DNA from: Octopus vulgaris
Taxonomy: Eukaryota
DNA: 64,000 bases
NCBI GenBank assembly: GCA_951406725.2
Contig: OX597815.1
Span: 138,756,001 to 138,820,000 of the forward strand
Direction of reading: 5' to 3'
Notes under the pieces: model-generated
What the model saw: only the letters and a program-made list of their open reading frames with translations
The model's database searches: none
Told to the model about the DNA's origin: nothing
Shown here: positions 7,260 through 37,482 of the stretch, in pieces
How the letters are laid out: every line of letters begins with the position of its first letter
Numbering within the stretch: the stretch's first letter is position 1
Program-made: the position numbers and the translations under genes

Positions 7260-7574
7260 TGTTAGCCCGTCTCTTGTAATTTCGATCAATTGTATCTTGT
7301 CCTCCCTCTTGTATAGAAGTGTGGCTACAATCCAGCCTACCTCTACTTCTGGGAGGGGGAACCTTTTTAATTTTTTTTCCGGGACGTCCTACGTCCCAGA
7401 TATAAAGGTAAAAATAAAATAAAATATTTCCACTTTGCAAGTTTGAGTCTCGAGTACTCCCTTGCACGCTCCGTTGACTCGAACCTTGCTTCTATTGTGG
7501 CGAATTTACCGCCTCTAATTAGATACCTTTCATAGTCGCACCAAGACACTTTTCGAAGGTGCTTTCCTCCATGT
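7260..7574 (-). pseudogene. Decayed ORF1 fragment (downstream half) of a third related LINE; this is the insertion target
   Basis: Frameshifted translation MEESTFEKCLGATMKGI / YLIRGGKFATIEARFESTERA...LPLYLGRRTSR / KVPP / EVEVGWIVATLLYKREDKIQLIEIT aligns to both ORF1s in the window (YINRGKKYGTVEVRF..LPLYKGKRTSK..PPEADAEVLVAAV; FLTRGSKYGTVVVHF..LPTYLNRRITR..PPNVEAEWIVAAV). Confidence 0.8.
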
Positions 7575-7820
7575 TGTTTTATTATTACCCACAAGGGGCG
7601 AACACAGATGGGACAATACATTCTGATGATGGGGTCAGACAAACGAATGGGTTTTTACAATAAATCGGGTTTAAAAATTTTCATGAATAACAATAAATGG
7701 ACAGAAATCGAGTGATAGGACAGACCGGAAGACATTACGGGTGGAGTGGGTGCGGGTTTAGCTCGGACCCCACGAGCCCCGCCTCCCCACTGATACTTTT
7801 GGTTGCACTTGGTATTACAT

Positions 7821-10800
7821 TTATGTTGTAACTTTCATTCGCAACTTCCGTGCTACATCCTTCCATCGTTCTTCATACGCTCTCCTAGTCAGGCATATTC
7901 TCTCCAGCCCTATCTTCCTTTTCAGGTGAAAGATGAAATAATTCATCAAACCAGGGCCGGAGATGAACTTGCCTGACTGTAAACCTTTCATTCTCGTCTT
8001 CCATATCACCTCTTTCGCGATTGCTACTACAACGAGAAAACGAAACTTACCTTCATTCACGAGGAAATCCGGTGGGTCAATTTTTGTAATCGACTCAGTC
8101 GACAGCTGTACTCTTCGTGTACCTGACAACAGGTGTTCGGCATAAACCCACACCTCAGACACGTCCGGACAATGAACAATCGCGTGCGGGACGGTTTCCC
8201 TATCCCGCCCGCATCTTGGACATATCGGACTGTCTTGGCCACCGTGCCTTGCGAGTTTATCCCGAACAGGTAGAGCTCCTCTGTAGCATTGCCATGCCAG
8301 AGACTTCTGGAAGTTGTCCAGTGTCCTTGGCTCGAACGTACGTCGGAACAGACTGGCCAGCTGGTTATCGTCGAGACCTAGGGTTTCCCCAAGGTATCTT
8401 CACATTCCGCCTCTACCAACCCTCTATAGAAGAAAGTGGTGGAACCCCCACCGCAGGCGTTGCCCGAGCGACGGAATAGCAGGAGAGCCTTGCGACACTC
8501 CGTGTACCAAGTACCAAGTTTCGATCTACGATTCAGCCAGGTTTCCCATCCACCGAAACTAGTGAACTTGGGAAACATCAGTTTTGCTAGCGAAGACCAC
8601 ACCCGTTCACCATCCAGGTAGAGCCACAGATGTCTTAACCTCAGCGCATGTCTGCGCATCATCAGCCAAGGCATCCCTAGCCCACCCTTTAACGGTTGTT
8701 GACAGCAAGTAGAGCGTTTCACAAGTGGTTTCCCGCCCTTCCACAAGAAGTAGAAGAGCTGTCTTTCCAACTTGATCAACCACGAATCAGGGCAAGGAAC
8801 GACGGAAAGGCGGTAGGTGATAACCGATGCGATAAACACATTGGCCACCTCCGCCCTCCCTTTCAGGGATAGCCACCGCCAAGACCAGGTCTTGGCTACT
8901 GCAGCCACCTTGCTCGTTACCTCGCCCCAATTCTTCTCTATTTGGAGGTCTGGACCGAACCAGACCCCTAGCAGTTTAATCGGACCCTCCGTCCAACGTC
9001 CCACGACGCTGTCAGGAGGCATCGACTTGCCTCTCCAGGTGCCGAGTTGCAAGCCGACTGACTTTTCGCGATTAACTTTTGCTCCTGTCACCGTCTCGTA
9101 CACCTCTATGGCCTTGCCTACTTTACATAGGTGGTCCATTTCGGTTACGATGATGGTGATGTCATCCGCGTACGCTGACACTGATTTTCCATTACCTGGC
9201 TGTCTCGGGATGCCGCTCAGTTTTCGCAGTAATGGCTCAAGAGCCATCACGTACAAAAGCGGGGAGAGCGGACACCCTTGACGAACCGAGCGTTTGATTT
9301 TGAACGGCTTCGACAAGAAGCCGTTCACCCGAACTACCGAGTCGATGTTATCATAAATTTCGATAATCCACCTGAGGAATCCAAGGCTCAGCCCGAACTG
9401 TGCCAGGGCAGATACCAGGTAACGATGGTCGACCCTATCAAAAGCTTTAGATTGGTCTAAATGGACCAGTGCCCCACCCTTGCCAGAATCACTATTAAAC
9501 CCCTCTATAGTGTACCGCATTAGATGGAGATTATCCTGAATGGATCTGCCCGGAACGGCACATGTCTGTGGCCCCTCCGATCAGACCATCCGCGACACGC
9601 GCCAATCTTTTCGATAACACTTTGGCCAAAATCTTCAACTCTGTGTTTAGCAGAGTGATGGGCCTGAAATTATCAATGCACTCCCCCTTGCTCGGGTCCT
9701 TTCTGACGAGAGTCACTACTCCCCGGCGCACAGATCTGGGTATAAGCCCGTTCTGCTGCCAGTTCGCGTAGACCTCCGCCAGTAGGTGCCCGAACAAGTC
9801 TGGCATACTCTTATATAACTCATAGGGTAGACCATCCAAACCCGGCGCCTTGCCCGCGCCGCAGTCCGCCATTGCCTCAACCACCTCCTCAGGCGTGATT
9901 GGCCCTTCACAGCCCTCCGCATCTCGCCCCGATAAGCGCGGCAGACCGTCGAGTAGGTCCGTAAAGGCCCTCCTCCTATCCAGTCCGCCGCACTCACCGA
10001 AAAGCTGAGCGAAGTGCTCCTGAAAGGCCTCACACATCTCCTCGGGTTCGTTTATCAACTCACCTTGTTGGTTCGTCAAAGATCGAATCGTGGCATCGTT
10101 ACCATGCTGAGCTTCCACCACTCGGGCCCATCTCACGGCGTTGATTCCTTCACATCCCATATGACGGATTCTAGCCCTGACAATGCAGCCCATGTGTTTG
10201 GCCTCGAGGTGCTGGTTTAACACCAGTCTCTTGGCCGCCACCTGAGCCGCAGAGCCAGTTTTCATGGCTTCCTCTAATTCCTTAACTAGAGTAGTTTCCC
10301 TTCTAGCCTCTCTAGCCACTACTCCTATGCTATATCTAATAGACTCAAACTTGATGGCTCGTTTGAGGGCGTACCACCATTTGTTATTAATGATGGTACC
10401 AGATAGTGCCCTCTGAATTATATTCCTAATCCGGTCTTTGTACTCCTTAATCGCCAAAAGGGACGTATTAAGTTTCCAGTAACCGGATCCTCTATTTTTA
10501 ACCTTATCTATGTCAAGCTTACAAGTGACCATTTTATGATCACTGTAGCTGATCGGGTAAAACTGTGGACACTTAGCTATTTTACTGTCTACTTTTCTAA
10601 TTAGTATTCTATCTAGATACGACCTGGAAGATCCGTCGCTGTTTGACCATGTCCACAATGGAGCGTTCGGAAATTCCAGCCTATAAGGATCTGCTAGCTC
10701 AAAGCGGCTTAGCAGTTCCATGAAGCCACTGTTGCCTTTTCTATCTGGACACGAGCCAACATAATCTACATCCGCTTTGCAAATTGTGTTAAAGTCTCCT

Positions 10801-11216
10801 AGCACCACTAATGAATGCGAAGTACCAAGAAAGTTTTCTAGTTCACGAAAATAATCACTTTGCCCTGTATGGTTGGGTGCGTAAATTGCAACCAGTCTGA
10901 TAACTTTACCATTACTGAACGTCAAATCCATGACGACCAGCCTACCTTCTGGATCTGCAAAAATTAACTTTTTCTCAGAAACCCGGTTTCTTTTTAATAG
11001 GACCAACACCCCACTCCCGCCTGTAGGACTGCCAGGAGAGAAAAAACTCTCGTAGCCGTCAAACAGCGGGAGTAGACCTCTTGGCCCCTCTAGCCGGGTT
11101 TCTGTAGCAACAATAACATCTAAATTACGCGACCTGATATCATGCAGGAAGCGACCTTGCTTCCAGCCTGCTCCCAGGCCGCGCACATTTAAACAACCAA
11201 CATAAATGTAATCCAT
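7821..11216 (-). CDS. LINE ORF2: APE endonuclease, reverse transcriptase and C-terminal zinc finger; two 1-bp frameshifts (~9570, ~8387)
   Basis: APE motifs LNVRG, ETR, IYAPN, GDFN, LDRI, SDH. RT motifs LDQSKAFDRV, QGCPLSP, YADD. Bridging the shifts gives QTCAVPGRSIQDNLHLMR and ETLGLDDNQL...CPRCGRDRETVPHAIVHC, which joins the ORF pieces 9531-11216, 8378-9520 and 7821-8162. Confidence 0.92.
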
Positions 11217-11225
11217 TACTTACCT

Positions 11226-12604
11226 TTATATCAGTGGTTCGGTTTTTTCTTCTTCTTCCTTCTCTTTTTCTGGGCCTCGTGGGGGAGTCTGACGTAGGCC
11301 CTCGAATATATGTGGAGATGTTACATCCAACCTAAGTGGGCCTACGTCATGGAAGAATTCTGACTTTATCCGCCCGTAATCCTTCCGGTCTATTTTGTAA
11401 ATTACAAAGTCATTTTTTTTCTCTACTCTCTTCACATTGGCCATGGCTGCCAACACGTTTCCGAGTCTGCTATTTGATGCTTTTACGGCCATATATGAGT
11501 TCATTGACTCTTTTTTCTTTTTTAAAATTACTCTGGGAGGGGTGGTTTCCGTTTTTCTTTTTTTTTTTCCGATAATTTTTGCCCACCCCTCCTCATTTAT
11601 CTTTTCCTCGCTCTTTTTTTCTCCGCCGCTGGTTCTGCTGTTACCATCACCTCCACACCTTCAGTCTTCCCTTCTGGGCCGTCTGACGCTGCTTCTGGTG
11701 ACACATTGTCTTCTTTTTCTTTTGGCTTAGGTGCTTCCTGCGGTTTGGGTTGGGGCTGGCATTCCGCCCTTACATGCCCCTTCTTACCGCAGCCGAAGCA
11801 CCTCGGCTTTCTGCCCTCTACGAAGACTGTGACTCTTTCATCTTCGCTTATCCTTAGAGTCTCTGGGATCTCTTCCAGGGTTTGTACTTCTGCTTGTATG
11901 GCTATTATTATCTTTTGCCCTTTCCAGAATTCTTCTTCTTCTACGGTGGCCTGGAGGATGTTTATTTTTTCCTCCAGGCCTACCATAACTGCTGCCACTA
12001 GGACTTCGGCATCCGCTTCTGGCGGGATGTTGTTCATTGTGATCTTGGAAGTTCTCTTGCCTTTATACAGGGGTAGGAGAACAATATCCTCCGCTTTTAT
12101 GGGTTCCATGGATAGCTTCTTCGCTACCTCCTCTGACGTGAATCTCACCTCCACTGTGCCGTATTTCTTCCCTCGATTGATATACGTAATTTTATCCATT
12201 ATTGGCTTTAAGCAGTTTTCAATCTTTTTCTCCTCTATTTTTTGGATTGCTCTGTTTGTTATACTGAATGTCTTATAGATTATTCTCCTATTCGAAATAT
12301 CCTCCTGTATTTTGGCGTTTGAAGCCACGGTTACTTCCGTGCCCTCTTTTGACACACAGTCCGCATGTTTTCCCAGGTTGTCCACGTTAATTTTTTTAAT
12401 TTTCTTCCCAGCCACTTCAGCGAATTTTTTTGCTGGAGTTGATGCTGGTACTGGTTTTACCATTTTCTTGGGCGACGCCGCCTCTTTTTTCTTCGGCGAC
12501 AGCGCCTCTTTTTTTCTTGGCGACAACGCCTCTTTTTTACTTGGCGACAACGCCGGGTATTCATCCTCGCTCGTCACGGGCGAATAAGTGATGGGGGACT
12601 CCAT
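11226..12604 (-). CDS. LINE ORF1 (RRM-like region plus CCHC zinc knuckle, ~460 aa), one frameshift in an A-run at ~11615
   Basis: CFGCGKKGHVRAEC matches CX2CX4HX4C. Shifting frame gives SEEKINEEGWAKIIGKKKRK...KESMNSYMAV, in frame with ORF 11226-11504. The first ATG is at 12604. Confidence 0.85.
12465..12552 (-). repeat. 24-bp coding minisatellite in ORF1 encoding (A-L/A-S-P-x-K-K-E) about 4 times
   Basis: ALSPSKKE ALSPRKKE ALSPKKKE AASPKK. Confidence 0.85.
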
Positions 12605-12986
12605 CTTGAACAAATGGCTTTAACAAGCCTTTGGTAATCTAAATTGATTGTAGTTTTCCCCCACTGAGGGGGAACACCAACGCGAAGTCTTCGCGCGAAG
12701 GTTGACTTCGTCCGTTAGACAACAATGGACAAAAAAAGGTAGACCAACAGTATATAATAACAGAGATAAGTAGTATGAGAGCAAAAATATATATCAACTT
12801 ACTAATAACGCAATAAATTGATTTCCTCCATGTGATTTCTTTATTACCCACTAAGGGGCTACGAAGAATGGCGGACATAACAAAACATGGGGACATAGAA
12901 CATTATAATTAAACTTTATGAAAATGAATTGTTAAACGAAAAAAATGATAAAATGAAAGCGATACCAACGGCCCCGTCCGTCAGCA

Positions 12987-14403
12987 TCACTTACCTGTCC
13001 TTTGTTTTTCATAGTCACTTGAATGTTCTTTGTCAATACGAATAAATTCCATATCCATTCTTACTCCGAAATACTCATTCATATTTTCCACGAATTCATC
13101 GCTCATTCTTATATCTTTCACCTCCCAATTTTCCTTTTCACACCTCCCCATAAACTCACCTATGTTCTTTTTTTCAATCACAGCATACCTAGTCTCTCCA
13201 ACATCATACCGTTTATACTCTTCCATTAGACTTTTAACTTCCCTCTGTTCAGTCATAGTACAAATGTACGGCCTGGGTTCGATTTCAATCTCTTGTGTGT
13301 GTGTATTCTTTTTTTTTTTTGTTTTCTTGTTGGTGGGGAGCGGGTGGGTTCAATGTCTGCATGGATAGGGTGGGACTCAGAGGGTGTGGGAGGTTTTGGG
13401 GTAGATTGGAGTTCCATATTATTTTCTTTTTTTCCACATATTCTTCTCTTCCTCTTACTTCCAGCTTCCTTCCATGTCTGTGTATTCTCTTCCTCTGTTT
13501 CCTTCTCCTCTGGTTTCTGCTTCTCTCTCTCTGGTTCGGGATCCATTTCTTTCCCTGGGGGAGGGCAGAAGGCTCTTATGTGACCCCTCAGGCCACACTT
13601 GTAACAACGTGGAGCCCTGCCCTCCACCCACACTCTCATGATCACTTCTCCCAGTCTGATGCTTTCCGTCAGGTCCACCAGTACCTCGGTCTCTGCCTGT
13701 ACGTTCAGCTCCACTGTTACTCCTCTCCAGCCCTCGGACTTAACCGAGGCATGGAGAATATCTACTTCGTCCTCGTGGCCGCTGATCACAGCCGCCACAA
13801 TCCATTCTGCCTCCACGTTTGGTGGCACTCCCTCCACCCTTATTCGTGTAATCCTCCTGTTTAAATACGTAGGTAACAGTGTTACCTTTTCCGACTTCAC
13901 CGCCTTCGCTGCCATCTTCCTCGCTGCAGACTCAGTTTTGAAATGCACAACTACGGTCCCGTACTTGGATCCTCGAGTCAGAAAATTTATTTCCTCCTCA
14001 GTTCTTCGCAGGGCTTCCTCTATCCATTCCATGGTTAAACTTCTACCCTCTTCCTTTCGTTTGCGAACACCCTGTAAACAATGGTCCTCTTATCATACCA
14101 TTCTTTTCTCCTGGGTGTCGGTGATAGTTCCACCTCACCGCTTTCCTTTTTCATGTATTTCTGGTAACTTGGCAACTTGGCCATGTCGACCCCTTTCTCT
14201 TCCGCCTTCTTGGTTACACCGGCATAGGTATAACCCAGCTTCTTTTCCAATTCCCTTGCTGCCATATCTAGCTCCTTCTCAGACATAGGCAAGTCTGATA
14301 AAGACTCAAAAACTCCAGCCTTTTCCTCCATCAGCTTCACTGCAATTGCCTGTTCCAGTTCCTCATCCGTCGTGGATAAGTCTGTTAGCGACTCATAGTC
14401 CAT
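12987..14403 (-). pseudogene. ORF1-like protein, unit 1 (two frameshifts; distinct sequence variant)
   Basis: Pieces 14035-14403, 13253-14032 and 12987-13256. Private substitutions EEAL, KTES and IRIDKE. Confidence 0.8.
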
Positions 14404-14716
14404 TTCCTTCTGTCTGACAGACCGAAAACGGCCGCCAAAACAGAAAAAGTGTAACGCGCTGAACGAGCGAAACGCGAAACCGCGTCAACGCCGTTCAGAA
14501 TTTCCACAACAACAACAACCTTTTTTGTTCTTTTTTACCGAATTTCAGGAGCCGAAAAAAAACGTATTTCTTTATTACCCACTAAGGGGCTACGAAGAGT
14601 GGCTGACATCACAAAACATGGGGACATAGAACATTATAATTAAACTTTATGAACATGAATTGTTAAACGAAAAAATGATAAAATGAAAGCGACACCAACG
14701 GCCCCGTCCGTCAGCA

Positions 14717-16132
14717 TCACTTACCTGTCCTTTGTTTTTCATAGTCACTTGAATGTTCTTTGCCAATATGAATAAATTCCATATCCATTCTTACTCCGAA
14801 ATACTCATTCATATTTTCCACGAATTCATCGCTCATTCTTATATCTTTCACCTCCCAATTTTCCTTTTCACACCTCCCCATAAACTCACCTATGTTCTTT
14901 TTTTCAATCACAGCATACCTAGTCTCTCCAACATCATACCGTTTATACTCTTCCATTAGACTTTTAACTTCCCTCTGTTCAGTCATAGTACAAATGTACG
15001 GCCTGGGTTCGATTTCAATCTCTTGTGTGTGTGTATTCTTTTTTTTCTTTTGTTTTCTTGTTGGTGGGGAGCGGGTGGGTTCAATGTCTGCATGGATAGG
15101 GTGGGACTCAGAGGGTGTGGGAGGTTTTGGGGTAGATTGGAGTTCCATATTATTTTCTTTTTTTCCACATATTCTTCTCTTCCTCTTACTTCCAGCTTCC
15201 TTCCATGTCTGTGTATTCTCTTCCTCTGTTTCCTTCTCCTCTGGTTTCTGCTTCTCTCTCTCTGGTTCGGGATCCATTTCTTTCCCTGGGGGAGGGCAGA
15301 AGGCTCTTATGTGACCCCTCAGGCCACACTTGTAACAACGTGGAGCCCTGCCCTCCACCCACACTCTCATGATCACTTCTCCCAGTCTGATGCTTTCCGT
15401 CAGGTCCACCAGTACCTCGGTCTCTGCCTGTACGTTCAGCTCCACTACTCCTCTCCAGCCCTCGGACTTAACCGAGGCATGGAGAATATCTACTTCGTCC
15501 TCGTGGCCGCTGATCACAGCCGCCACAATCCATTCTGCCTCCACGTTTGGTGGCACTCCCTCCACCCTTATTCGTGTAATCCTCCTGTTTAAATACGTAG
15601 GTAACAGTGTTACCTTTTCCGACTTCACCGCCTTCGCTGCCATCTTCCTCGCTGCAGATTCACTTTTAAAGTGCACAACTACGGTCCCGTACTTGGATCC
15701 TCGAGTCAGAAAATTTATTTCCTCCTCAGTTCTTCGCAGGGCTTCCTGTATCCATTCCATGGTTACAACTTCTACCCTCTTCCTTTCGTTTGCGAACACC
15801 CTGTAAACAATGGTCCTCTTATCATACCATTCTTTTCTCCTGGGTGTCGGTGATAGTTCCACCTCACCGCTTTCCTTTTTCATGTATTTCTGGTAACTTG
15901 GCAACTTGGCCATGTCGACCCCTTTCTCTTCCGCCTTCTTGGTTACACCGGCATAGGTATAACCCAGCTTCTTTTCCAATTCCCTTGCTGCCATATCTAG
16001 CTCCTTCTCAGACATAGGCAAGTCTGATAAAGACTCAAAAACTCCAGCCTTTTCCTCCATCAGCTTCACTGCAATTGCCTGTTCCAGTTCCTCATCCGTC
16101 GTGGATAAGTCTGTTAGCGACTCATAGTCCAT
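14717..16132 (-). CDS. ORF1/Gag-like protein with CCHC knuckle, unit 2 (471 aa)
   Basis: CYKCGLRGHIRAFC; homologous to the adjacent LINE ORF1. Confidence 0.88.
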   Translation of the reverse strand: MDYESLTDLSTTDEELEQAIAVKLMEEKAGVFESLSDLPMSEKELDMAARELEKKLGYTYAGVTKKAEEKGVDMAKLPSYQKYMKKESGEVELSPTPRRKEWYDKRTIVYRVFANERKRVEVVTMEWIQEALRRTEEEINFLTRGSKYGTVVVHFKSESAARKMAAKAVKSEKVTLLPTYLNRRITRIRVEGVPPNVEAEWIVAAVISGHEDEVDILHASVKSEGWRGVVELNVQAETEVLVDLTESIRLGEVIMRVWVEGRAPRCYKCGLRGHIRAFCPPPGKEMDPEPEREKQKPEEKETEEENTQTWKEAGSKRKRRICGKKENNMELQSTPKPPTPSESHPIHADIEPTRSPPTRKQKKKKNTHTQEIEIEPRPYICTMTEQREVKSLMEEYKRYDVGETRYAVIEKKNIGEFMGRCEKENWEVKDIRMSDEFVENMNEYFGVRMDMEFIHIGKEHSSDYEKQRTGK

Positions 16133-16447
16133 TTCCTTCTGTCTGACAGACCGAAAACGGCCGCCAAAACAGAAAAAGTGTAACGCGCTGAACGAGCGAA
16201 ACGCGAAACCGCGTCAACGCCGTTCAGAATTTCCACAACAACAACAACCTTTTTTGTTCTTTTTTACCGAATTTTCAGGAGCCGAAAAAACCGCGTATTT
16301 CTTTATTACCCACTAAGGGGCTACGAAGAATGGCGGACATAACAAAACATGGGGACATAGAACATTATAATTAAACTTTATGAACATGAAGTGTTAAACG
16401 AAAAAATGATAAAATGAAAGCGACACCAACGGCCCCGTCCGTCAGCA

Positions 16448-26712: not shown

Positions 26713-27053
26713 TTCCTTCTGTCTGACAGACCGAAAACGGCCGCCAAAACAGAAAAAGTGTAACGCGCTGAACGAGCGAAACGCGAAACCGCGTCAACGC
26801 CGTTCAGAATTTCCACAACAACAACAACCTTTTTTGTTCTTTTTTACCGAATTTTCAGGAGCCGAAAAAAAAACGACTGAGCGAAAAGAAAGCAGTAAGG
26901 CTGATTTTTTATTACCCACTAAGGGGCTACGAAGAGTGCCGGACATAACAAAACATGGGGACACAGAACATTATAATTAAATTTTATGAACATGAAGTGT
27001 TAAACGAAAAAATGATAAAATGAAAGCGACACCAACGGCCCCGTCCGTCAGCA

Positions 27054-28472
27054 TCACTTACCTGTCCTTTGTTTTTCATAGTCACTTGAATGTTCTTTGC
27101 CAATATGAATAAATTCCATATCCATTCTTACTCCGAAATACTCATTCATATTTTCCACGAATTCATCGCTCATTCTTATATCTTTCACCTCCCAATTTTC
27201 CTTTTCACACCTCCCCATAAACTCACCTATGTTCTTTTTTTCAATCACAGCATACCTAGTCTCTCCAACATCATACCGTTTATACTCTTCCATTAGACTT
27301 TTAACTTCCCTCTGTTCAGTCATAGTACAAATGTACGGCCTGGGTTCGATTTCAATCTCTTGTGTGTGTGTATTCTTTTTTTTTTTTTGTTTTCTTGTTG
27401 GTGGGGAGCGGGTGGGTTCAATGTCTGCATGGATAGGGTGGGACTCAGAGGGTGTGGGAGGTTTTGGGGTAGATTGGAGTTCCATATTATTTTCTTTTTT
27501 TCCACATATTCTTCTCTTCCTCTTACTTCCAGCTTCCTTCCATGTCTGTGTATTCTCTTCCTCTGTTTCCTTCTCCTCTGGTTTCTGCTTCTCTCTCTCT
27601 GGTTCGGGATCCATTTCTTTCCCTGGGGGAGGGCAGAAGGCTCTTATGTGACCCCTCAGGCCACACTTGTAACAACGTGGAGCCCTGCCCTCCACCCACA
27701 CTCTCATGATCACTTCTCCCAGTCTGATGCTTTCCGTCAGGTCCACCAGTACCTCGGTCTCTGCCTGTACGTTCAGCTCCACTGTTACTCCTCTCCAGCC
27801 CTCGGACTTAACCGAGGCATGGAGAATATCTACTTCGTCCTCGTGGCCGCTGATCACAGCCGCCACAATCCATTCTGCCTCCACGTTTGGTGGCACTCCC
27901 TCCACCCTTATTCGTGTAATCCTCCTGTTTAAATACGTAGGTAACAGTGTTACCTTTTCCGACTTCACCGCCTTCGCTGCCATCTTCCTCGCTGCAGATT
28001 CACTTTTAAAGTGCACAACTACGGTCCCGTACTTGGATCCTCGAGTCAGAAAATTTATTTCCTCCTCAGTTCTTCGCAGGGCTTCCTGTATCCATTCCAT
28101 GGTTACAACTTCTACCCTCTTCCTTTCGTTTGCGAACACCCTGTAAACAATGGTCCTCTTATCATACCATTCTTTTCTCCTGGGTGTCGGTGATAGTTCC
28201 ACCTCACCGCTTTCCTTTTTCATGTATTTCTGGTAACTTGGCAACTTGGCCATGTCGACCCCTTTCTCTTCCGCCTTCTTGGTTACACCGGCATAGGTAT
28301 AACCCAGCTTCTTTTCCAATTCCCTTGCTGCCATATCTAGCTCCTTCTCAGACATAGGCAAGTCTGATAAAGACTCAAAAACTCCAGCCTTTTCCTCCAT
28401 CAGCTTCACTGCAATTGCCTGTTCCAGTTCCTCATCCGTCGTGGATAAGTCTGTTAGCGACTCATAGTCCAT
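27054..28472 (-). CDS. ORF1/Gag-like protein, unit 9 (472 aa)
   Basis: Intact ORF with CCHC knuckle. Confidence 0.88.
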   Translation of the reverse strand: MDYESLTDLSTTDEELEQAIAVKLMEEKAGVFESLSDLPMSEKELDMAARELEKKLGYTYAGVTKKAEEKGVDMAKLPSYQKYMKKESGEVELSPTPRRKEWYDKRTIVYRVFANERKRVEVVTMEWIQEALRRTEEEINFLTRGSKYGTVVVHFKSESAARKMAAKAVKSEKVTLLPTYLNRRITRIRVEGVPPNVEAEWIVAAVISGHEDEVDILHASVKSEGWRGVTVELNVQAETEVLVDLTESIRLGEVIMRVWVEGRAPRCYKCGLRGHIRAFCPPPGKEMDPEPEREKQKPEEKETEEENTQTWKEAGSKRKRRICGKKENNMELQSTPKPPTPSESHPIHADIEPTRSPPTRKQKKKKNTHTQEIEIEPRPYICTMTEQREVKSLMEEYKRYDVGETRYAVIEKKNIGEFMGRCEKENWEVKDIRMSDEFVENMNEYFGVRMDMEFIHIGKEHSSDYEKQRTGK

Positions 28473-28816
28473 TTCCTTCTGTCTGACAGACCGAAAACGG
28501 CCGCCAAAACAGAAAAAGTGTAACGCGCTGAACGAGCGAAACGCGAAACCGCGTCAACGCCGTTCAGAATTTCCACAACAACAACAACAACTTTTTTGTT
28601 CTTTTTTACCGAATTTTCAGGAGCCGAAAAAAAACGACGAGCAGAAAGCAGAAAGCAGTAAGGCTGATTTTTTATTACCCACTAAGGGGCTACGAAGAGT
28701 GCCGGACATAACAAAACATGGGGACACAGAACATTATAATTAAATTTTATGAACATGAAGTGTTAAACGAAAAAATGATAAAATGAAAGCGACACCAACG
28801 GCCCCGTCCGTCAGCA

Positions 28817-30235
28817 TCACTTACCTGTCCTTTGTTTTTCATAGTCACTTGAATGTTCTTTGCCAATATGAATAAATTCCATATCCATTCTTACTCCGAA
28901 ATACTCATTCATATTTTCCACGAATTCATCGCTCATTCTTATATCTTTCACCTCCCAATTTTCCTTTTCACACCTCCCCATAAACTCACCTATGTTCTTT
29001 TTTTCAATCACAGCATACCTAGTCTCTCCAACATCATACCGTTTATACTCTTCCATTAGACTTTTAACTTCCCTCTGTTCAGTCATAGTACAAATGTACG
29101 GCCTGGGTTCGATTTCAATCTCTTGTGTGTGTGTATTCTTTTTTTTCTTTTGTTTTCTTGTTGGTGGGGAGCGGGTGGGTTCAATGTCTGCATGGATAGG
29201 GTGGGACTCAGAGGGTGTGGGAGGTTTTGGGGTAGATTGGAGTTCCATATTATTTTCTTTTTTTCCACATATTCTTCTCTTCCTCTTACTTCCAGCTTCC
29301 TTCCATGTCTGTGTATTCTCTTCCTCTGTTTCCTTCTCCTCTGGTTTCTGCTTCTCTCTCTCTGGTTCGGGATCCATTTCTTTCCCTGGGGGAGGGCAGA
29401 AGGCTCTTATGTGACCCCTCAGGCCACACTTGTAACAACGTGGAGCCCTGCCCTCCACCCACACTCTCATGATCACTTCTCCCAGTCTGATGCTTTCCGT
29501 CAGGTCCACCAGTACCTCGGTCTCTGCCTGTACGTTCAGCTCCACTGTTACTCCTCTCCAGCCCTCGGACTTAACCGAGGCATGGAGAATATCTACTTCG
29601 TCCTCGTGGCCGCTGATCACAGCCGCCACAATCCATTCTGCCTCCACGTTTGGTGGCACTCCCTCCACCCTTATTCGTGTAATCCTCCTGTTTAAATACG
29701 TAGGTAACAGTGTTACCTTTTCCGACTTCACCGCCTTCGCTGCCATCTTCCTCGCTGCAGATTCACTTTTAAAGTGCACAACTACGGTCCCGTACTTGGA
29801 TCCTCGAGTCAGAAAATTTATTTCCTCCTCAGTTCTTCGCAGGGCTTCCTGTATCCATTCCATGGTTACAACTTCTACCCTCTTCCTTTCGTTTGCGAAC
29901 ACCCTGTAAACAATGGTCCTCTTATCATACCATTCTTTTCTCCTGGGTGTCGGTGATAGTTCCACCTCACCGCTTTCCTTTTTCATGTATTTCTGGTAAC
30001 TTGGCAACTTGGCCATGTCGACCCCTTTCTCTTCCGCCTTCTTGGTTACACCGGCATAGGTATAACCCAGCTTCTTTTCCAATTCCCTTGCTGCCATATC
30101 TAGCTCCTTCTCAGACATAGGCAAGTCTGATAAAGACTCAAAAACTCCAGCCTTTTCCTCCATCAGCTTCACTGCAATTGCCTGTTCCAGTTCCTCATCC
30201 GTCGTGGATAAGTCTGTTAGCGACTCATAGTCCAT
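28817..30235 (-). CDS. ORF1/Gag-like protein, unit 10 (472 aa)
   Basis: Intact ORF with CCHC knuckle. Confidence 0.88.
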   Translation of the reverse strand: MDYESLTDLSTTDEELEQAIAVKLMEEKAGVFESLSDLPMSEKELDMAARELEKKLGYTYAGVTKKAEEKGVDMAKLPSYQKYMKKESGEVELSPTPRRKEWYDKRTIVYRVFANERKRVEVVTMEWIQEALRRTEEEINFLTRGSKYGTVVVHFKSESAARKMAAKAVKSEKVTLLPTYLNRRITRIRVEGVPPNVEAEWIVAAVISGHEDEVDILHASVKSEGWRGVTVELNVQAETEVLVDLTESIRLGEVIMRVWVEGRAPRCYKCGLRGHIRAFCPPPGKEMDPEPEREKQKPEEKETEEENTQTWKEAGSKRKRRICGKKENNMELQSTPKPPTPSESHPIHADIEPTRSPPTRKQKKKKNTHTQEIEIEPRPYICTMTEQREVKSLMEEYKRYDVGETRYAVIEKKNIGEFMGRCEKENWEVKDIRMSDEFVENMNEYFGVRMDMEFIHIGKEHSSDYEKQRTGK

Positions 30236-30548
30236 TTCCTTCTGTCTGACAGACCGAAAACGGCCGCCAAAACAGAAAAAGTGTAACGCGCTGAACGAGC
30301 GAAACGCGAAACCGCGTCAACGCCGTTCAGAATTTCCACAACAACAACAACGCTTTTTGTTCTTTTTTACCGAATTTTACAGAGCGCAAAAAAACGCGTT
30401 TTTTTATTACCCACTAAGGGGCTACGAAGAGTGCCGGACATAACAAAACATGGGGACACAGAACATTATAATTAAATTTTATGAACATGAAGTGTTAAAC
30501 GAAAAAATGATAAAATGAAAGCGACACCAACGGCCCCGTCCGTCAGCA

Positions 30549-31967
30549 TCACTTACCTGTCCTTTGTTTTTCATAGTCACTTGAATGTTCTTTGCCAATA
30601 TGAATAAATTCCATATCCATTCTTACTCCGAAATACTCATTCATATTTTCCACGAATTCATCGCTCATTCTTATATCTTTCACCTCCCAATTTTCCTTTT
30701 CACACCTCCCCATAAACTCACCTATGTTCTTTTTTTCAATCACAGCATACCTAGTCTCTCCAACATCATACCGTTTATACTCTTCCATTAGACTTTTAAC
30801 TTCCCTCTGTTCAGTCATAGTACAAATGTACGGCCTGGGTTCGATTTCAATCTCTTGTGTGTGTGTATTCTTTTTTTTTTTTTGTTTTCTTGTTGGTGGG
30901 GAGCGGGTGGGTTCAATGTCTGCATGGATAGGGTGGGACTCAGAGGGTGTGGGAGGTTTTGGGGTAGATTGGAGTTCCATATTATTTTCTTTTTTTCCAC
31001 ATATTCTTCTCTTCCTCTTACTTCCAGCTTCCTTCCATGTCTGTGTATTCTCTTCCTCTGTTTCCTTCTCCTCTGGTTTCTGCTTCTCTCTCTCTGGTTC
31101 GGGATCCATTTCTTTCCCTGGGGGAGGGCAGAAGGCTCTTATGTGACCCCTCAGGCCACACTTGTAACAACGTGGAGCCCTGCCCTCCACCCACACTCTC
31201 ATGATCACTTCTCCCAGTCTGATGCTTTCCGTCAGGTCCACCAGTACCTCGGTCTCTGCCTGTACGTTCAGCTCCACTGTTACTCCTCTCCAGCCCTCGG
31301 ACTTAACCGAGGCATGGAGAATATCTACTTCGTCCTCGTGGCCGCTGATCACAGCCGCCACAATCCATTCTGCCTCCACGTTTGGTGGCACTCCCTCCAC
31401 CCTTATTCGTGTAATCCTCCTGTTTAAATACGTAGGTAACAGTGTTACCTTTTCCGACTTCACCGCCTTCGCTGCCATCTTCCTCGCTGCAGATTCACTT
31501 TTAAAGTGCACAACTACGGTCCCGTACTTGGATCCTCGAGTCAGAAAATTTATTTCCTCCTCAGTTCTTCGCAGGGCTTCCTGTATCCATTCCATGGTTA
31601 CAACTTCTACCCTCTTCCTTTCGTTTGCGAACACCCTGTAAACAATGGTCCTCTTATCATACCATTCTTTTCTCCTGGGTGTCGGTGATAGTTCCACCTC
31701 ACCGCTTTCCTTTTTCATGTATTTCTGGTAACTTGGCAACTTGGCCATGTCGACCCCTTTCTCTTCCGCCTTCTTGGTTACACCGGCATAGGTATAACCC
31801 AGCTTCTTTTCCAATTCCCTTGCTGCCATATCTAGCTCCTTCTCAGACGTAGGCAAGTCTGATAAAGACTCGAAAACTCCAGCCTTTTCCTCCATCAGCT
31901 TCACTGCAATTGCCTGTTCCAGTTCCTCATCCGTCGTGGATAAGTCTGTTAGCGACTCATAGTCCAT
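30549..31967 (-). CDS. ORF1/Gag-like protein, unit 11 (472 aa)
   Basis: Intact ORF; M40T variant. Confidence 0.88.
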   Translation of the reverse strand: MDYESLTDLSTTDEELEQAIAVKLMEEKAGVFESLSDLPTSEKELDMAARELEKKLGYTYAGVTKKAEEKGVDMAKLPSYQKYMKKESGEVELSPTPRRKEWYDKRTIVYRVFANERKRVEVVTMEWIQEALRRTEEEINFLTRGSKYGTVVVHFKSESAARKMAAKAVKSEKVTLLPTYLNRRITRIRVEGVPPNVEAEWIVAAVISGHEDEVDILHASVKSEGWRGVTVELNVQAETEVLVDLTESIRLGEVIMRVWVEGRAPRCYKCGLRGHIRAFCPPPGKEMDPEPEREKQKPEEKETEEENTQTWKEAGSKRKRRICGKKENNMELQSTPKPPTPSESHPIHADIEPTRSPPTRKQKKKKNTHTQEIEIEPRPYICTMTEQREVKSLMEEYKRYDVGETRYAVIEKKNIGEFMGRCEKENWEVKDIRMSDEFVENMNEYFGVRMDMEFIHIGKEHSSDYEKQRTGK

Positions 31968-32311
31968 TTCCTTCTGTCTGACAGACCGAAAACGGCCGCC
32001 AAAACAGAAAAAGTGTAACGCGCTGAACGAGCGAAACGCGAAACCGCGTCAACGCCGTTCAGAATTTCCACAACAACAACAACCTTTTTTGTTCTTTTTT
32101 ACCGAATTTTCAGGAGCCGAAAAAAAAACGACTGAGCAGAAAGCAGAAAGCAGTAAGGCTGATTTTTTATTACCCACTAAGGGGCTACGAAGAGTGCCGG
32201 ACATAACAAAACATGGGGACACAGAACATTATAATTAAATTTTATGAACATGAAGTGTTAAACGAAAAAATGATAAAATGAAAGCGACACCAACGGCCCC
32301 GTCCGTCAGCA

Positions 32312-33730
32312 TCACTTACCTGTCCTTTGTTTTTCATAGTCACTTGAATGTTCTTTGCCAATATGAATAAATTCCATATCCATTCTTACTCCGAAATACT
32401 CATTCATATTTTCCACGAATTCATCGCTCATTCTTATATCTTTCACCTCCCAATTTTCCTTTTCACACCTCCCCATAAACTCACCTATGTTCTTTTTTTC
32501 AATCACAGCATACCTAGTCTCTCCAACATCATACCGTTTATACTCTTCCATTAGACTTTTAACTTCCCTCTGTTCAGTCATAGTACAAATGTACGGCCTG
32601 GGTTCGATTTCAATCTCTTGTGTGTGTGTATTCTTTTTTTTTTTTTGTTTTCTTGTTGGTGGGGAGCGGGTGGGTTCAATGTCTGCATGGATAGGGTGGG
32701 ACTCAGAGGGTGTGGGAGGTTTTGGGGTAGATTGGAGTTCCATATTATTTTCTTTTTTTCCACATATTCTTCTCTTCCTCTTACTTCCAGCTTCCTTCCA
32801 TGTCTGTGTATTCTCTTCCTCTGTTTCCTTCTCCTCTGGTTTCTGCTTCTCTCTCTCTGGTTCGGGATCCATTTCTTTCCCTGGGGGAGGGCAGAAGGCT
32901 CTTATGTGACCCCTCAGGCCACACTTGTAACAACGTGGAGCCCTGCCCTCCACCCACACTCTCATGATCACTTCTCCCAGTCTGATGCTTTCCGTCAGGT
33001 CCACCAGTACCTCGGTCTCTGCCTGTACGTTCAGCTCCACTGTTACTCCTCTCCAGCCCTCGGACTTAACCGAGGCATGGAGAATATCTACTTCGTCCTC
33101 GTGGCCGCTGATCACAGCCGCCACAATCCATTCTGCCTCCACGTTTGGTGGCACTCCCTCCACCCTTATTCGTGTAATCCTCCTGTTTAAATACGTAGGT
33201 AACAGTGTTACCTTTTCCGACTTCACCGCCTTCGCTGCCATCTTCCTCGCTGCAGATTCACTTTTAAAGTGCACAACTACGGTCCCGTACTTGGATCCTC
33301 GAGTCAGAAAATTTATTTCCTCCTCAGTTCTTCGCAGGGCTTCCTGTATCCATTCCATGGTTACAACTTCTACCCTCTTCCTTTCGTTTGCGAACACCCT
33401 GTAAACAATGGTCCTCTTATCATACCATTCTTTTCTCCTGGGTGTCGGTGATAGTTCCACCTCACCGCTTTCCTTTTTCATGTATTTCTGGTAACTTGGC
33501 AACTTGGCCATGTCGACCCCTTTCTCTTCCGCCTTCTTGGTTACACCGGCATAGGTATAACCCAGCTTCTTTTCCAATTCCCTTGCTGCCATATCTAGCT
33601 CCTTCTCAGACATAGGCAAGTCTGATAAAGACTCAAAAACTCCAGCCTTTTCCTCCATCAGCTTCACTGCAATTGCCTGTTCCAGTTCCTCATCCGTCGT
33701 GGATAAGTCTGTTAGCGACTCATAGTCCAT
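32312..33730 (-). CDS. ORF1/Gag-like protein, unit 12 (472 aa)
   Basis: Intact ORF with CCHC knuckle. Confidence 0.88.
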   Translation of the reverse strand: MDYESLTDLSTTDEELEQAIAVKLMEEKAGVFESLSDLPMSEKELDMAARELEKKLGYTYAGVTKKAEEKGVDMAKLPSYQKYMKKESGEVELSPTPRRKEWYDKRTIVYRVFANERKRVEVVTMEWIQEALRRTEEEINFLTRGSKYGTVVVHFKSESAARKMAAKAVKSEKVTLLPTYLNRRITRIRVEGVPPNVEAEWIVAAVISGHEDEVDILHASVKSEGWRGVTVELNVQAETEVLVDLTESIRLGEVIMRVWVEGRAPRCYKCGLRGHIRAFCPPPGKEMDPEPEREKQKPEEKETEEENTQTWKEAGSKRKRRICGKKENNMELQSTPKPPTPSESHPIHADIEPTRSPPTRKQKKKKNTHTQEIEIEPRPYICTMTEQREVKSLMEEYKRYDVGETRYAVIEKKNIGEFMGRCEKENWEVKDIRMSDEFVENMNEYFGVRMDMEFIHIGKEHSSDYEKQRTGK

Positions 33731-34074
33731 TTCCTTCTGTCTGACAGACCGAAAACGGCCGCCAAAACAGAAAAAGTGTAACGCGCTGAACGAGCGAAAC
33801 GCGAAACCGCGTCAACGCCGTTCAGAATTTCCACAACAACAACAACCTTTTTTGTTCTTTTTTACCGAATTTTCAGGAGCCGAAAAAAAAACGACTGAGC
33901 AGAAAGCAGAAAGCAGTAAGGCTGATTTTTTATTACCCACTAAGGGGCTACGAAGAGTGCCGGACATAACAAAACATGGGGACACAGAACATTATAATTA
34001 AATTTTATGAACATGAAGTGTTAAACGAAAAAATGATAAAATGAAAGCGACACCAACGGCCCCGTCCGTCAGCA

Positions 34075-35496
34075 TCACTTACCTGTCCTTTGTTTTTCAT
34101 AGTCACTTGAATGTTCTTTGCCAATATGAATAAATTCCATATCCATTCTTACTCCGAAATACTCATTCATATTTTCCACGAATTCATCGCTCATTCTTAT
34201 ATCTTTCACCTCCTCCCAATTTTCCTTTTCACACCTCCCCATAAACTCACCTATGTTCTTTTTTTCAATCACAGCATACCTAGTCTCTCCAACATCATAC
34301 CGTTTATACTCTTCCATTAGACTTTTAACTTCCCTCTGTTCAGTCATAGTACAAATGTACGGCCTGGGTTCGATTTCAATCTCTTGTGTGTGTGTATTCT
34401 TTTTTTTCTTTTGTTTTCTTGTTGGTGGGGAGCGGGTGGGTTCAATGTCTGCATGGATAGGGTGGGACTCAGAGGGTGTGGGAGGTTTTGGGGTAGATTG
34501 GAGTTCCATATTATTTTCTTTTTTTCCACATATTCTTCTCTTCCTCTTACTTCCAGCTTCCTTCCATGTCTGTGTATTCTCTTCCTCTGTTTCCTTCTCC
34601 TCTGGTTTCTGCTTCTCTCTCTCTGGTTCGGGATCCATTTCTTTCCCTGGGGGAGGGCAGAAGGCTCTTATGTGACCCCTCAGGCCACACTTGTAACAAC
34701 GTGGAGCCCTGCCCTCCACCCACACTCTCATGATCACTTCTCCCAGTCTGATGCTTTCCGTCAGGTCCACCAGTACCTCGGTCTCTGCCTGTACGTTCAG
34801 CTCCACTGTTACTCCTCTCCAGCCCTCGGACTTAACCGAGGCATGGAGAATATCTACTTCGTCCTCGTGGCCGCTGATCACAGCCGCCACAATCCATTCT
34901 GCCTCCACGTTTGGTGGCACTCCCTCCACCCTTATTCGTGTAATCCTCCTGTTTAAATACGTAGGTAACAGTGTTACCTTTTCCGACTTCACCGCCTTCG
35001 CTGCCATCTTCCTCGCTGCAGATTCACTTTTAAAGTGCACAACTACGGTCCCGTACTTGGATCCTCGAGTCAGAAAATTTATTTCCTCCTCAGTTCTTCG
35101 CAGGGCTTCCTGTATCCATTCCATGGTTACAACTTCTACCCTCTTCCTTTCGTTTGCGAACACCCTGTAAACAATGGTCCTCTTATCATACCATTCTTTT
35201 CTCCTGGGTGTCGGTGATAGTTCCACCTCACCGCTTTCCTTTTTCATGTATTTCTGGTAACTTGGCAACTTGGCCATGTCGACCCCTTTCTCTTCCGCCT
35301 TCTTGGTTACACCGGCATAGGTATAACCCAGCTTCTTTTCCAATTCCCTTGCTGCCATATCTAGCTCCTTCTCAGACATAGGCAAGTCTGATAAAGACTC
35401 AAAAACTCCAGCCTTTTCCTCCATCAGCTTCACTGCAATTGCCTGTTCCAGTTCCTCATCCGTCGTGGATAAGTCTGTTAGCGACTCATAGTCCAT
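34075..35496 (-). CDS. ORF1/Gag-like protein, unit 13 (473 aa)
   Basis: Intact ORF with a one-codon insertion. Confidence 0.88.
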   Translation of the reverse strand: MDYESLTDLSTTDEELEQAIAVKLMEEKAGVFESLSDLPMSEKELDMAARELEKKLGYTYAGVTKKAEEKGVDMAKLPSYQKYMKKESGEVELSPTPRRKEWYDKRTIVYRVFANERKRVEVVTMEWIQEALRRTEEEINFLTRGSKYGTVVVHFKSESAARKMAAKAVKSEKVTLLPTYLNRRITRIRVEGVPPNVEAEWIVAAVISGHEDEVDILHASVKSEGWRGVTVELNVQAETEVLVDLTESIRLGEVIMRVWVEGRAPRCYKCGLRGHIRAFCPPPGKEMDPEPEREKQKPEEKETEEENTQTWKEAGSKRKRRICGKKENNMELQSTPKPPTPSESHPIHADIEPTRSPPTRKQKKKKNTHTQEIEIEPRPYICTMTEQREVKSLMEEYKRYDVGETRYAVIEKKNIGEFMGRCEKENWEEVKDIRMSDEFVENMNEYFGVRMDMEFIHIGKEHSSDYEKQRTGK

Positions 35497-35830
35497 TTCC
35501 TTCTGTCTGACAGACCGAAAACGGCCGCCAAAACAGAAAAAGTGTAACGCGCTGAACGAGCGAAACGCGAAACCGCGTCAACGCCGTTCAGAATTTCCAC
35601 AACAACAACAACGCTTTTTGTTCTTTTTTACCGAATTTCAGGAGCCGAAAAAAAAAACACGGAGCCGAAAAAACTTATTTTATTTTTTATTACCCACTAA
35701 GGGGCTACGAAGAGTGCCGGACATAACAAAACATGGGGACACAGAACATTATAATTAAATTTTATGAACATGAAGTGTTAAACGAAAAATGATAAAATGA
35801 AAGCGACACCAACGGCCCCGTCCGTCAGCA

Positions 35831-37249
35831 TCACTTACCTGTCCTTTGTTTTTCATAGTCACTTGAATGTTCTTTGCCAATATGAATAAATTCCATATCC
35901 ATTCTTACTCCGAAATACTCATTCATATTTTCCACGAATTCATCGCTCATTCTTATATCTTTCACCTCCCAATTTTCCTTTTCACACCTCCCCATAAACT
36001 CACCTATGTTCTTTTTTTCAATCACAGCATACCTAGTCTCTCCAACATCATACCGTTTATACTCTTCCATTAGACTTTTAACTTCCCTCTGTTCAGTCAT
36101 AGTACAAATGTACGGCCTGGGTTCGATTTCAATCTCTTGTGTGTGTGTATTCTTTTTTTTCTTTTGTTTTCTTGTTGGTGGGGAGCGGGTGGGTTCAATG
36201 TCTGCATGGATAGGGTGGGACTCAGAGGGTGTGGGAGGTTTTGGGGTAGATTGGAGTTCCATATTATTTTCTTTTTTTCCACATATTCTTCTCTTCCTCT
36301 TACTTCCAGCTTCCTTCCATGTCTGTGTATTCTCTTCCTCTGTTTCCTTCTCCTCTGGTTTCTGCTTCTCTCTCTCTGGTTCGGGATCCATTTCTTTCCC
36401 TGGGGGAGGGCAGAAGGCTCTTATGTGACCCCTCAGGCCACACTTGTAACAACGTGGAGCCCTGCCCTCCACCCACACTCTCATGATCACTTCTCCCAGT
36501 CTGATGCTTTCCGTCAGGTCCACCAGTACCTCGGTCTCTGCCTGTACGTTCAGCTCCACTGTTACTCCTCTCCAGCCCTCGGACTTAACCGAGGCATGGA
36601 GAATATCTACTTCGTCCTCGTGGCCGCTGATCACAGCCGCCACAATCCATTCTGCCTCCACGTTTGGTGGCACTCCCTCCACCCTTATTCGTGTAATCCT
36701 CCTGTTTAAATACGTAGGTAACAGTGTTACCTTTTCCGACTTCACCGCCTTCGCTGCCATCTTCCTCGCTGCAGATTCACTTTTAAAGTGCACAACTACG
36801 GTCCCGTACTTGGATCCTCGAGTCAGAAAATTTATTTCCTCCTCAGTTCTTCGCAGGGCTTCCTGTATCCATTCCATGGTTACAACTTCTACCCTCTTCC
36901 TTTCGTTTGCGAACACCCTGTAAACAATGGTCCTCTTATCATACCATTCTTTTCTCCTGGGTGTCGGTGATAGTTCCACCTCACCGCTTTCCTTTTTCAT
37001 GTATTTCTGGTAACTTGGCAACTTGGCCATGTCGACCCCTTTCTCTTCCGCCTTCTTGGTTACACCGGCATAGGTATAACCCAGCTTCTTTTCCAATTCC
37101 CTTGCTGCCATATCTAGCTCCTTCTCAGACATAGGCAAGTCTGATAAAGACTCAAAAACTCCAGCCTTTTCCTCCATCAGCTTCACTGCAATTGCCTGTT
37201 CCAGTTCCTCATCCGTCGTGGATAAGTCTGTTAGCGACTCATAGTCCAT
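35831..37249 (-). CDS. ORF1/Gag-like protein, unit 14 (472 aa)
   Basis: Intact ORF with CCHC knuckle. Confidence 0.88.
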   Translation of the reverse strand: MDYESLTDLSTTDEELEQAIAVKLMEEKAGVFESLSDLPMSEKELDMAARELEKKLGYTYAGVTKKAEEKGVDMAKLPSYQKYMKKESGEVELSPTPRRKEWYDKRTIVYRVFANERKRVEVVTMEWIQEALRRTEEEINFLTRGSKYGTVVVHFKSESAARKMAAKAVKSEKVTLLPTYLNRRITRIRVEGVPPNVEAEWIVAAVISGHEDEVDILHASVKSEGWRGVTVELNVQAETEVLVDLTESIRLGEVIMRVWVEGRAPRCYKCGLRGHIRAFCPPPGKEMDPEPEREKQKPEEKETEEENTQTWKEAGSKRKRRICGKKENNMELQSTPKPPTPSESHPIHADIEPTRSPPTRKQKKKKNTHTQEIEIEPRPYICTMTEQREVKSLMEEYKRYDVGETRYAVIEKKNIGEFMGRCEKENWEVKDIRMSDEFVENMNEYFGVRMDMEFIHIGKEHSSDYEKQRTGK

Positions 37250-37406
37250 TTCCTTCTGTCTGACAGACCGAAAACGGCCGCCAAAACAGAAAAAGTGTAA
37301 CGCGCTGAACGAGCGAAACGCGAAACCGCGTCAACGCCGTTCAGAATTTCCACAACAACAACAACTTTTTGTTCTTTTTTACCGAATTTTCAGGAGCCGA
37401 AAAAAC

Positions 37407-37482
37407 CGCAACCTTTTTCCTCTACATTGTATACTTTATAGACAATAGTCTTTTCTTTAATTTAATTTTTTATTATCCATCT
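37407..37482 (-). pseudogene. Decayed ORF1 fragment (upstream half) of the interrupted third element
   Basis: The minus strand translates IKEKTIVYKVYNVEEKG, matching DKRTIVYRVFANERK (array ORF1) and NRRIIYKTFSITNR (LINE ORF1). In those proteins this motif immediately precedes the segment found at 7574. Confidence 0.7.

Follow-up and report, generated by a model that had tools for sequence, protein, structure and literature searches.

Structure of the locus

The window, which is the whole stretch of 64,000 nucleotides from Octopus vulgaris that was analysed, contains at 7575-37413 an insert composed of one L1/Tx1-like LINE and 14 units that encode ORF1 alone (Table 1). The sequences on both sides of the insert are the two halves of a non-autonomous Helitron of about 1.1-1.2 kb, in which the 5' portion of a related LINE's ORF1 is present. 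In a preliminary description, a 30 kb complex was proposed to be inserted at a single point within the ORF1 of a third related element. The collinear flanks and the single point were borne out, but the host is a non-autonomous Helitron, and a free third element as host is ruled out by Helitron ends on both flanks. The insert limits proposed there, 7260 and 37482, instead lie near the limits of the ORF1-derived piece, and the left flank given as HMEE reads N-M-E-E in the window, the H occurring in empty sites.

Table 1. Positions of the features at the insertion locus in the window
Feature	Position	Strand	Remark
Helitron 3' half, CTAG end before T	7078..7574	-	from sequence comparison of copies
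G+C-rich palindrome (hairpin)	7089..7107	-	8 bp before Helitron 3' end; read from sequence
Decayed ORF1 piece, downstream part	7261..7574	-	its ~7261 end, where similarity to the donor-like LINE stops on the 3' side, is also insertion site 2
Target duplication (12 bp), downstream copy	7563..7574	-	nick probably between 7575 and 7574
Full-length L1/Tx1-like LINE	7575..12821	-	more than 99% identical to other copies
LINE ORF2, zf-RVT piece	7821-8399	-	
LINE ORF2, RT piece	8378-9580	-	
LINE ORF2, APE endonuclease piece	9531-11216	-	
LINE ORF1 with putative CCHC knuckle	11597-12604	-	tail continues in another frame, 11226-11660
Target duplication (12 bp), upstream copy	12822..12833	-	separates unit 1 from the 5' end of the LINE
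Head-to-tail array of 14 ORF1-only units	12834..37413	-	~1.73-1.82 kb each
Array junction with host sequence	18041..18124	-	~65 bp from upstream of the target
Helitron 5' half	37414..38093	-	ORF1-derived from ~37482 down to 37414
Putative TATA-like hexamer	37434..37440	-	formed by Tyr-Lys codons in the ORF1 piece; first base 27 nt upstream of the unit 14 start
Joint of ~570-bp deletion	37470..37482	-	long to short Helitron form

As in the L1/Tx1 group, the ORF2 of the LINE comprises an N-terminal APE endonuclease (PF03372, E 4e-14), a reverse transcriptase (PF00078, E 2e-23) and a zf-RVT domain (PF13966, E 1e-9), and its closest solved relative is human L1 ORF2p (E 3e-34). The ORF1 of the Tx1 clade carries a CCHC zinc knuckle. 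This motif is visible in the ORF1 of the LINE, with the Pfam zf-CCHC domain scoring below the cutoff (E 0.05-0.07). No Tx1-labelled sequence was returned among the named homologues, and the label "Tx1-like" reflects architecture and target habit.

The array units differ from each other by 0-23 substitutions, have an intact ORF of 471-473 aa in 11 of 14 cases, and share a tail motif with the LINE. Their ORF1s and that of the LINE fall on separate branches of a tree and do not fit a simple origin of the units as partner LINEs that lost their ORF2; the two may still have an older common origin. Some units are identical, and the same 32-nt leader is found at seven of the 13 internal junctions; duplication after insertion may therefore account for part of the array. 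The host sequence at one junction (Table 1) may have arrived as flanking sequence on the RNA, or may stem from duplication after a second nick.

The host Helitron and its ORF1-derived piece

The 3' ends of Helitrons are characterized by CTRR followed by T. Among the aligned copies, CTAG followed by T was found in 61 of 65 rows (a few loci being counted twice), and the 5' end is TC after A in 28 of 37 rows as judged by eye, the window copy having the C changed. A palindrome read from the sequence is present where a hairpin is expected, about 10 bp before the 3' end. No target duplication is expected at Helitron ends, and the flanks differ between copies. By a rough figure, this Helitron accounts for about 0.1% of the genome.

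The ORF1 origin of the internal piece is supported by a profile built from 16 ORF1 cores, which gives its parts 18.1, 16.4 and 9.1 bits, compared with at most 2.9 bits in 200 shuffles, and an in-frame copy of the piece has 30% identity to the LINE ORF1 (E 3e-29). The claim that the joined halves keep the spacing of the LINE ORF1 was confirmed by equal spacing in three loci (L014, L024 and L223). A donor-like full LINE family with 78-80% protein identity to the piece is present in the genome. No longer database relative of the piece was found, and 228 relatives gave no surrounding context.

Several forms of the Helitron exist. The long form keeps the donor-like LINE 5' UTR and about 175 ORF1 codons, and the short form, to which the window copy belongs, is without about 570 bp of this sequence. 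A further form is without the LINE piece, and an insertion (L408) struck it at the position that the piece occupies in the other forms; one filled locus (L154) represents a third deletion form.

Repeated use of one insertion site

The preliminary description withstood both conditions that it had set for its own refutation, since the flanks are not random and empty alleles exist. The best 29 other matches of the left flank comprise 17 uninterrupted empty sites, 6 sites with a LINE 3' end and 6 with the 3' end of an ORF1-only unit, at the same base. It had also been proposed that two different elements used one nick site, and several families were indeed found to use it, within ORF1-derived DNA of a third related family. 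The 3' junctions of the LINE and unit 1, described as 1 nt apart, are 5.26 kb apart on the two copies of the 12-bp duplication. The 1-nt offset is not supported either: the extra base behind it also ends the unit tail before other sequence in four loci (L105-L108), so that LINE and unit most simply share the same base.

When 30 LINE 3' ends were taken by position, 19 lay at the main base or at the copy of it made by duplication, 3 used a second site in the same Helitron (at the ~7261 end of the ORF1 piece) and 8 were elsewhere; among the 30 best-scoring LINE ends, 27 were on target. Target-specific Tx1 families likewise favour a single position within a repeat. The opening letters of several of the 8 off-target ends are similar, in line with a local preference. 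An exact-pattern census of the site returned 931 empty and at least 121 filled copies (121/1052), the latter being a lower bound since the pattern misses one tail subfamily, and 10 of 90 Helitron copies taken by position were occupied. LINE copies leave duplications of 12-16 bp that rebuild the site. At most unit 5' junctions about 9-15 bp of the target are lost, and about 9-12 bp are missing at the 5' junction of the insert in the window.

Host form, local sequence and independence of the insertions

Resolved filled hosts are of the short form in 33 of 33 cases, compared with 41 of 68 empty ones (p 5e-6). The 33 consist of 23/23 5' junctions from searches that were not host-seeded, leaving out L141 and L154, and 10/10 resolved hosts with the C allele; the total leaves out 2 of the 12 loci with this allele, along with several further filled ones that did not resolve. 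One upstream variant occurs in 6 of the 23 junctions but in 1 of 73 empty sites, and a flank carried on RNA may overwrite host sequence at the 5' junction and inflate the short-form count. An independent check is provided by the ancestral in-frame marker downstream of the site, which was found in 0/51 filled and 16/73 empty hosts (p 1.6e-4). No filled copy was found among the long forms, which have the most intact ORF1, although their local sequence is often identical: 14 empty long forms have a perfect local site, and divergence is equal in the two forms (90.9% and 91.0%). Since long forms with the same local site are unfilled, the choice of site probably needs context beyond about 60 bp upstream. 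These comparisons of copies suggest that the site is likely set by the upstream Helitron context together with the local letters.

An alternative is that the endonuclease reads sequence alone, as in Xenopus Tx1L, and that long forms are empty owing to lower accessibility, for example by silencing through their longer LINE homology. The Tx1L endonuclease nicks almost solely its target in vitro (PMC1950540), and most on-target junctions here are precise to one base. By hand count, the third base after the nick is A in 90 of the first 100 filled sites and in 30 of the first 100 empty ones. This apparently strong preference for A (90:10 versus 30:70) was downgraded: the exact pattern missed one tail subfamily, and in the by-position sample the bias falls to 6:4 filled versus 21:52 empty (p 0.07). 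The second site and the unit-to-unit junctions, moreover, have other sequence after the nick. Recognition of sequence alone is considered unlikely.

The preliminary description had suggested that the ORF1 of a relative may be a dedicated target, the Helitron copies being hit, on this reading, as a by-product. The site does lie in true ORF1-derived DNA, similar in protein to a full LINE family of this genome. However, those Helitron copies that are most ORF1-like are unfilled, as the downstream marker indicates, the Helitron form without the ORF1 piece was also hit, and it is the Helitron that multiplies the site. The donor-like sites that match the pattern are empty in 4/4 cases, which is weak evidence (p 0.61), as four are too few to count and filled ones could be missed by the pattern. 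No target was present at the homologous codons of live ORF1s of the inserting families among 11 family representatives. A dedicated ORF1 target is accordingly very unlikely as the original one.

Passive multiplication of one or a few nested insertions, by rolling-circle copying of the Helitron or by segmental duplication, would agree with junction variants that recur among loci and with the repeated leader in the array, but it is the least credible reading and, for the insertions, largely refuted by the host tree and by the identities of LINE and flank. Across 21 filled loci, LINE tails are 99.6% alike and host flanks 93.1% alike, the host value being taken from the first 100 bp because longer comparison is distorted by loci with later insertions. 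In a tree of hosts, filled copies are scattered among empty ones and form no single clade, and the filled sites show several tail families, truncation points and junction types. Near-identical LINEs in diverged hosts, the scatter of filled hosts and the varied tails and truncations indicate that the insertions are independent and not spread by Helitron copying.

Proposed course of insertion

Taken as a whole, we regard it as probable that one base of the Helitron has received at least 121 independent insertions of the LINE group and its ORF1-only passengers, and that the site is given by upstream context with a loose local preference. The ORF1 piece would be what is left of an older insertion at the place in the Helitron that it now occupies, shortened by deletion and multiplied through rolling-circle copying. 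Through a second deletion, the ORF1-derived site would have come to lie no more than ~80 bp from the Helitron 5' half and become the principal place of insertion. The APE endonuclease of the LINE would nick this site, where target-primed reverse transcription likely inserts the LINE and its passengers. Lacking an ORF2, the units may borrow it in trans via the shared tail, and later copies would be added either where the site is rebuilt or to the array's 5' end.

One transposon would thus multiply a landing site made from a gene of another, which represents a route to a new retrotransposon target. The long, short and ORF1-free hosts with the same local site form a natural deletion series, in which factors other than the endonuclease in the siting of APE-type LINEs are testable.

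Relation to known systems

Transposon-targeting families include Tx1L in Tx1D of Xenopus, and Tx1-Mar, Tx1-9_AMi, Tx1-8_Crp and Tx1-4_AMi in crocodilians (PMC4494074; PMC1950540). As in these systems, an APE-type LINE prefers a fixed position in another, often non-autonomous, transposon. Their hosts are piggyBac, Mariner, Harbinger and LTR elements (PMC4494074), whereas the host here is a Helitron, of which one deletion form is preferred, and the site lies in DNA derived from the ORF1 of a related LINE. No published Helitron was found as a LINE target, although Repbase, subscription papers and supplements may list such families, and the consulted part of an octopus repeat paper (PMC13282606) has no passage with target, nested or ORF1.

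R1 of Drosophila, inserted in 28S rDNA, also forms tandem arrays split by target duplication, with a fixed 3' and a flexible 5' junction, and one R1 lineage deletes 9 bp of the target and carries the upstream flank on RNA (PMC2718515). The target here is a transposon instead of rDNA, and an autonomous LINE is combined in the arrays with several families that encode ORF1 alone. The units resemble HAL1 (half-L1, PMC5753468), which is non-autonomous and encodes ORF1 alone, in this feature and in sharing a tail with a LINE; unlike HAL1, they have the target of the LINE, form arrays, and have ORF1s distant from that of the partner.

A possible promoter-like anchor upstream of the site

The main site lies 36-39 nt after the TATA-like hexamer, and in 27 of 29 junctions the unit 5' end follows it by 24-29 nt. 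One locus (L407) has lost the main site and carries its insertion 38 nt after the hexamer in different sequence; the positional cases are single loci each (L407 and L408). Two tests of a promoter-like anchor gave it no support: the hexamer is no better kept in filled than in empty copies (20/23 versus 65/73, p 0.72), and none of 41 long forms was hit at the ancestral position by the Helitron 5' half, where a simple ruler model predicts hits. That the upstream anchor is a promoter or a bound factor, with the nick near the transcription start, is the weakest step, and taken alone its chance falls somewhat short of even.

A fuller version, which is still more tentative, holds that the APE-type LINE would find its site by position behind the promoter-like anchor. 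The landing pad would be the wreck of an earlier insertion, in which part of a related LINE's ORF1 was kept in the Helitron and two ORF1 codons were turned by deletion into a TATA-like box next to the 5' half of the Helitron. Rolling-circle copying would have spread about a thousand such pads, and ORF1-only passengers with short leaders would be given a promoter.

Tethered integration is familiar from TRE5 of amoebae and Ty3 of yeast, and if position rules over sequence, it would extend to an animal LINE group. A model for the positional step is TRE5-A of Dictyostelium, an APE/RT non-LTR element that is placed by its distance from a promoter complex, probably through contact of ORF1 with TFIIIB (PMC5006619). 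The target there is a tRNA gene, whereas the promoter or factor here is putative. In another repeat, the donor-like family itself was seen by eye to follow a TATA-like box at a distance of about 33 nt (L267 and L268).

Nested Insert and Its Host Repeat

The insert in the window consists of a LINE and an array of ORF1-only units, and in a homologue search the named relatives of the LINE ORF1 were restricted to Octopus, which identifies the genome as octopus-type. The flanks had been described preliminarily as two halves of one sequence, and they are: among 29 other best matches of the left flank, 17 run directly into the right flank; in the other 12, the left flank abuts the 3' end of a LINE or unit, at the same base as in the window. 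The LINE and unit 3' junctions had also been placed 1 nt apart on one target. The junctions compared are the two copies of a 12-bp duplication, one on each side of the LINE, and the 1-nt offset vanishes because four other junctions assign the extra base to the unit tail. At window ~1372-1450 (minus strand), a different short repeat is joined to a solitary 3' tail from this element group.

Components of the nested insert (window coordinates)
Feature	Position	Strand	Domains
LINE, 5.25 kb	7575-12821	minus	APE endonuclease, RT, zf-RVT
14 ORF1-only units, head-to-tail, preceding the LINE	12834-37413	minus	

A first look gave 2055 and 482 candidates for the two flanks, both of which are high-copy repeats, and the joined repeat measures 1.0-1.3 kb in 21 whole copies. 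Its 5' terminus is TC following an A in 28 of 37 rows, and its 3' terminus is a hairpin and then CTAG preceding a T in 61 of 65 rows (both counted by eye, some loci twice); such termini are marks of a non-autonomous Helitron. Its 5' half contains an internal ~150-bp direct repeat, 86% identical (window 37754-38050). Tandem copies of the Helitron itself, observed at four other loci (L042, L043, L010, and L079), are expected from rolling-circle copying.

ORF1 Relic and Donor-Like LINEs

The joined host repeat contains a true ORF1 relic. When the relic was predicted in its undeleted state and used as a pattern, 273 matches were obtained. The 12 fetched were Helitron copies, and most represent a longer form, about 1.6-1.75 kb in length, in which a LINE 5' UTR and an open frame of up to ~180 codons are retained. 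Matches with longer frames were obtained by protein search, and 10 fetched loci yielded three full-length decayed LINEs and four further partial LINEs. The relic is 78-80% identical to the ORF1 of these donor-like LINEs, vs. 28-41% to the ORF1s of the inserting families. The related third element proposed as host therefore exists as a LINE family, but it is the Helitron that carries the target copies. At L408, a relic-free host is filled at the position corresponding to the present end of the relic, which suggests that the relic is what trimming has left of an earlier insertion there. The donor-like family appears to have its own, different target, since it has the same flanks at three loci (L264, L267, and L268; G000 C32:~530000, C1:~103604000, and C12:~46322000). 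There it lies within another repeat, preceded by CCAAT-like and TATA-like boxes; the distance from the latter is ~33 nt as judged by eye in L267 and L268.

Site Preference and Occupancy

The exact tail pattern identified 207 LINE 3' ends. Among the first 30 by position, 15 (the window included) adjoin the Helitron site, 4 the duplicated copy of that site ahead of a further element, and 3 a second Helitron site; 8 lie elsewhere. The 30 best-scoring unit ends adjoin the site (9), its duplication before another element's 5' end (8), another element (12), or an unrelated repeat (1). Off-target LINE and unit ends at L060, L061, and L106 are joined to repeats that are presumably SINE-like. Exact patterns counted 931 empty and at least 121 filled host sites. 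Of 90 host copies taken by position, 10 were filled and 73 empty, and 7 could not be assigned to either class. The insertions are independent, because LINE tails at 21 filled loci are 99.6% alike in hosts 93.1% alike, and filled hosts are dispersed through the host tree.

Where both ends of a LINE insertion could be resolved, the target is duplicated over 12-16 bp, with some deletions. At six 5' junctions (L039, L067, L092, L137, L138, and L143) the upstream duplication copy frequently shows one and the same single-base difference from the target, which indicates that a target-like sequence belongs to the LINE 5' end itself; this sequence resembles a YY1-type motif. In 27 of 29 junctions the unit 5' end falls 24-29 nt past a TATA-like hexamer, with part of the target removed. 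The same host site is used by at least five further ORF1 families (L032, L038, L002, L003, L047, and L137), mostly or all without ORF2, whose ORF1s are widely diverged.

Determinants of Site Choice

A relative's ORF1 as dedicated target, as initially proposed, is not upheld, because the most ORF1-like Helitron copies are those not hit. The searches that supplied the 33 resolved filled hosts had no upstream host sequence as seed, and every one of these hosts is of the short form, vs. 41 of 68 empties; the ancestral in-frame marker downstream occurs in 0 of 51 filled hosts vs. 16 of 73 empties. Long forms are as old as short forms, and a perfect local site is present in 14 of the long forms sampled. 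Since these are unfilled and the only differences between the two forms lie farther than about 60-75 bp upstream of the nick, local sequence is insufficient. Taken as a whole, context-dependent targeting is thus probable. A promoter step within it, in which the upstream anchor would be promoter-like, is a more tentative proposition, with chances slightly short of even. In one host lacking the main site (L407), the insertion lies in other sequence at the same distance from the TATA-like hexamer, and the donor-like family, in its different repeat, likewise lies about 33 nt past a TATA-like box (by eye). Counting against this step, filled hosts retain the hexamer no more often (20/23) than empties do (65/73), and none of 41 long forms has an insertion at the ancestral position. 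In the long-form Helitron at L281, an element tail lies within the captured 5' UTR, some 110 bp past the capture boundary.

Comparison With Known Elements and the Unit Array

Published Tx1-clade families target piggyBac, Mariner, Harbinger, and LTR elements (PMC4494074), HAL1 are ORF1-only elements (PMC5753468), and TRE5 are position-specific elements (PMC5006619). No Helitron serving as LINE target was found among the papers listed by the literature searches. The system is real and is a variant of the known transposon-targeting habit; new from this analysis are a family resembling the donor, a series of forms of the host, and the unfilled state of the most ORF1-like copies.

For array stacking and target loss, PMC2718515 offers a precedent in R1 of Drosophila, which stacks at a rebuilt duplication and deletes target through flank-bearing RNA. 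Units of the window array are 0-23 substitutions apart, with the ORF intact in 11 of 14. A 32-nt leader is common to 7 of 13 internal junctions, and one internal junction contains ~65 bp of host DNA from upstream of the target. Some of the array may have arisen by duplication once units had inserted. Such arrays recur on many contigs, with 114 unit 5' motifs, mostly clustered.
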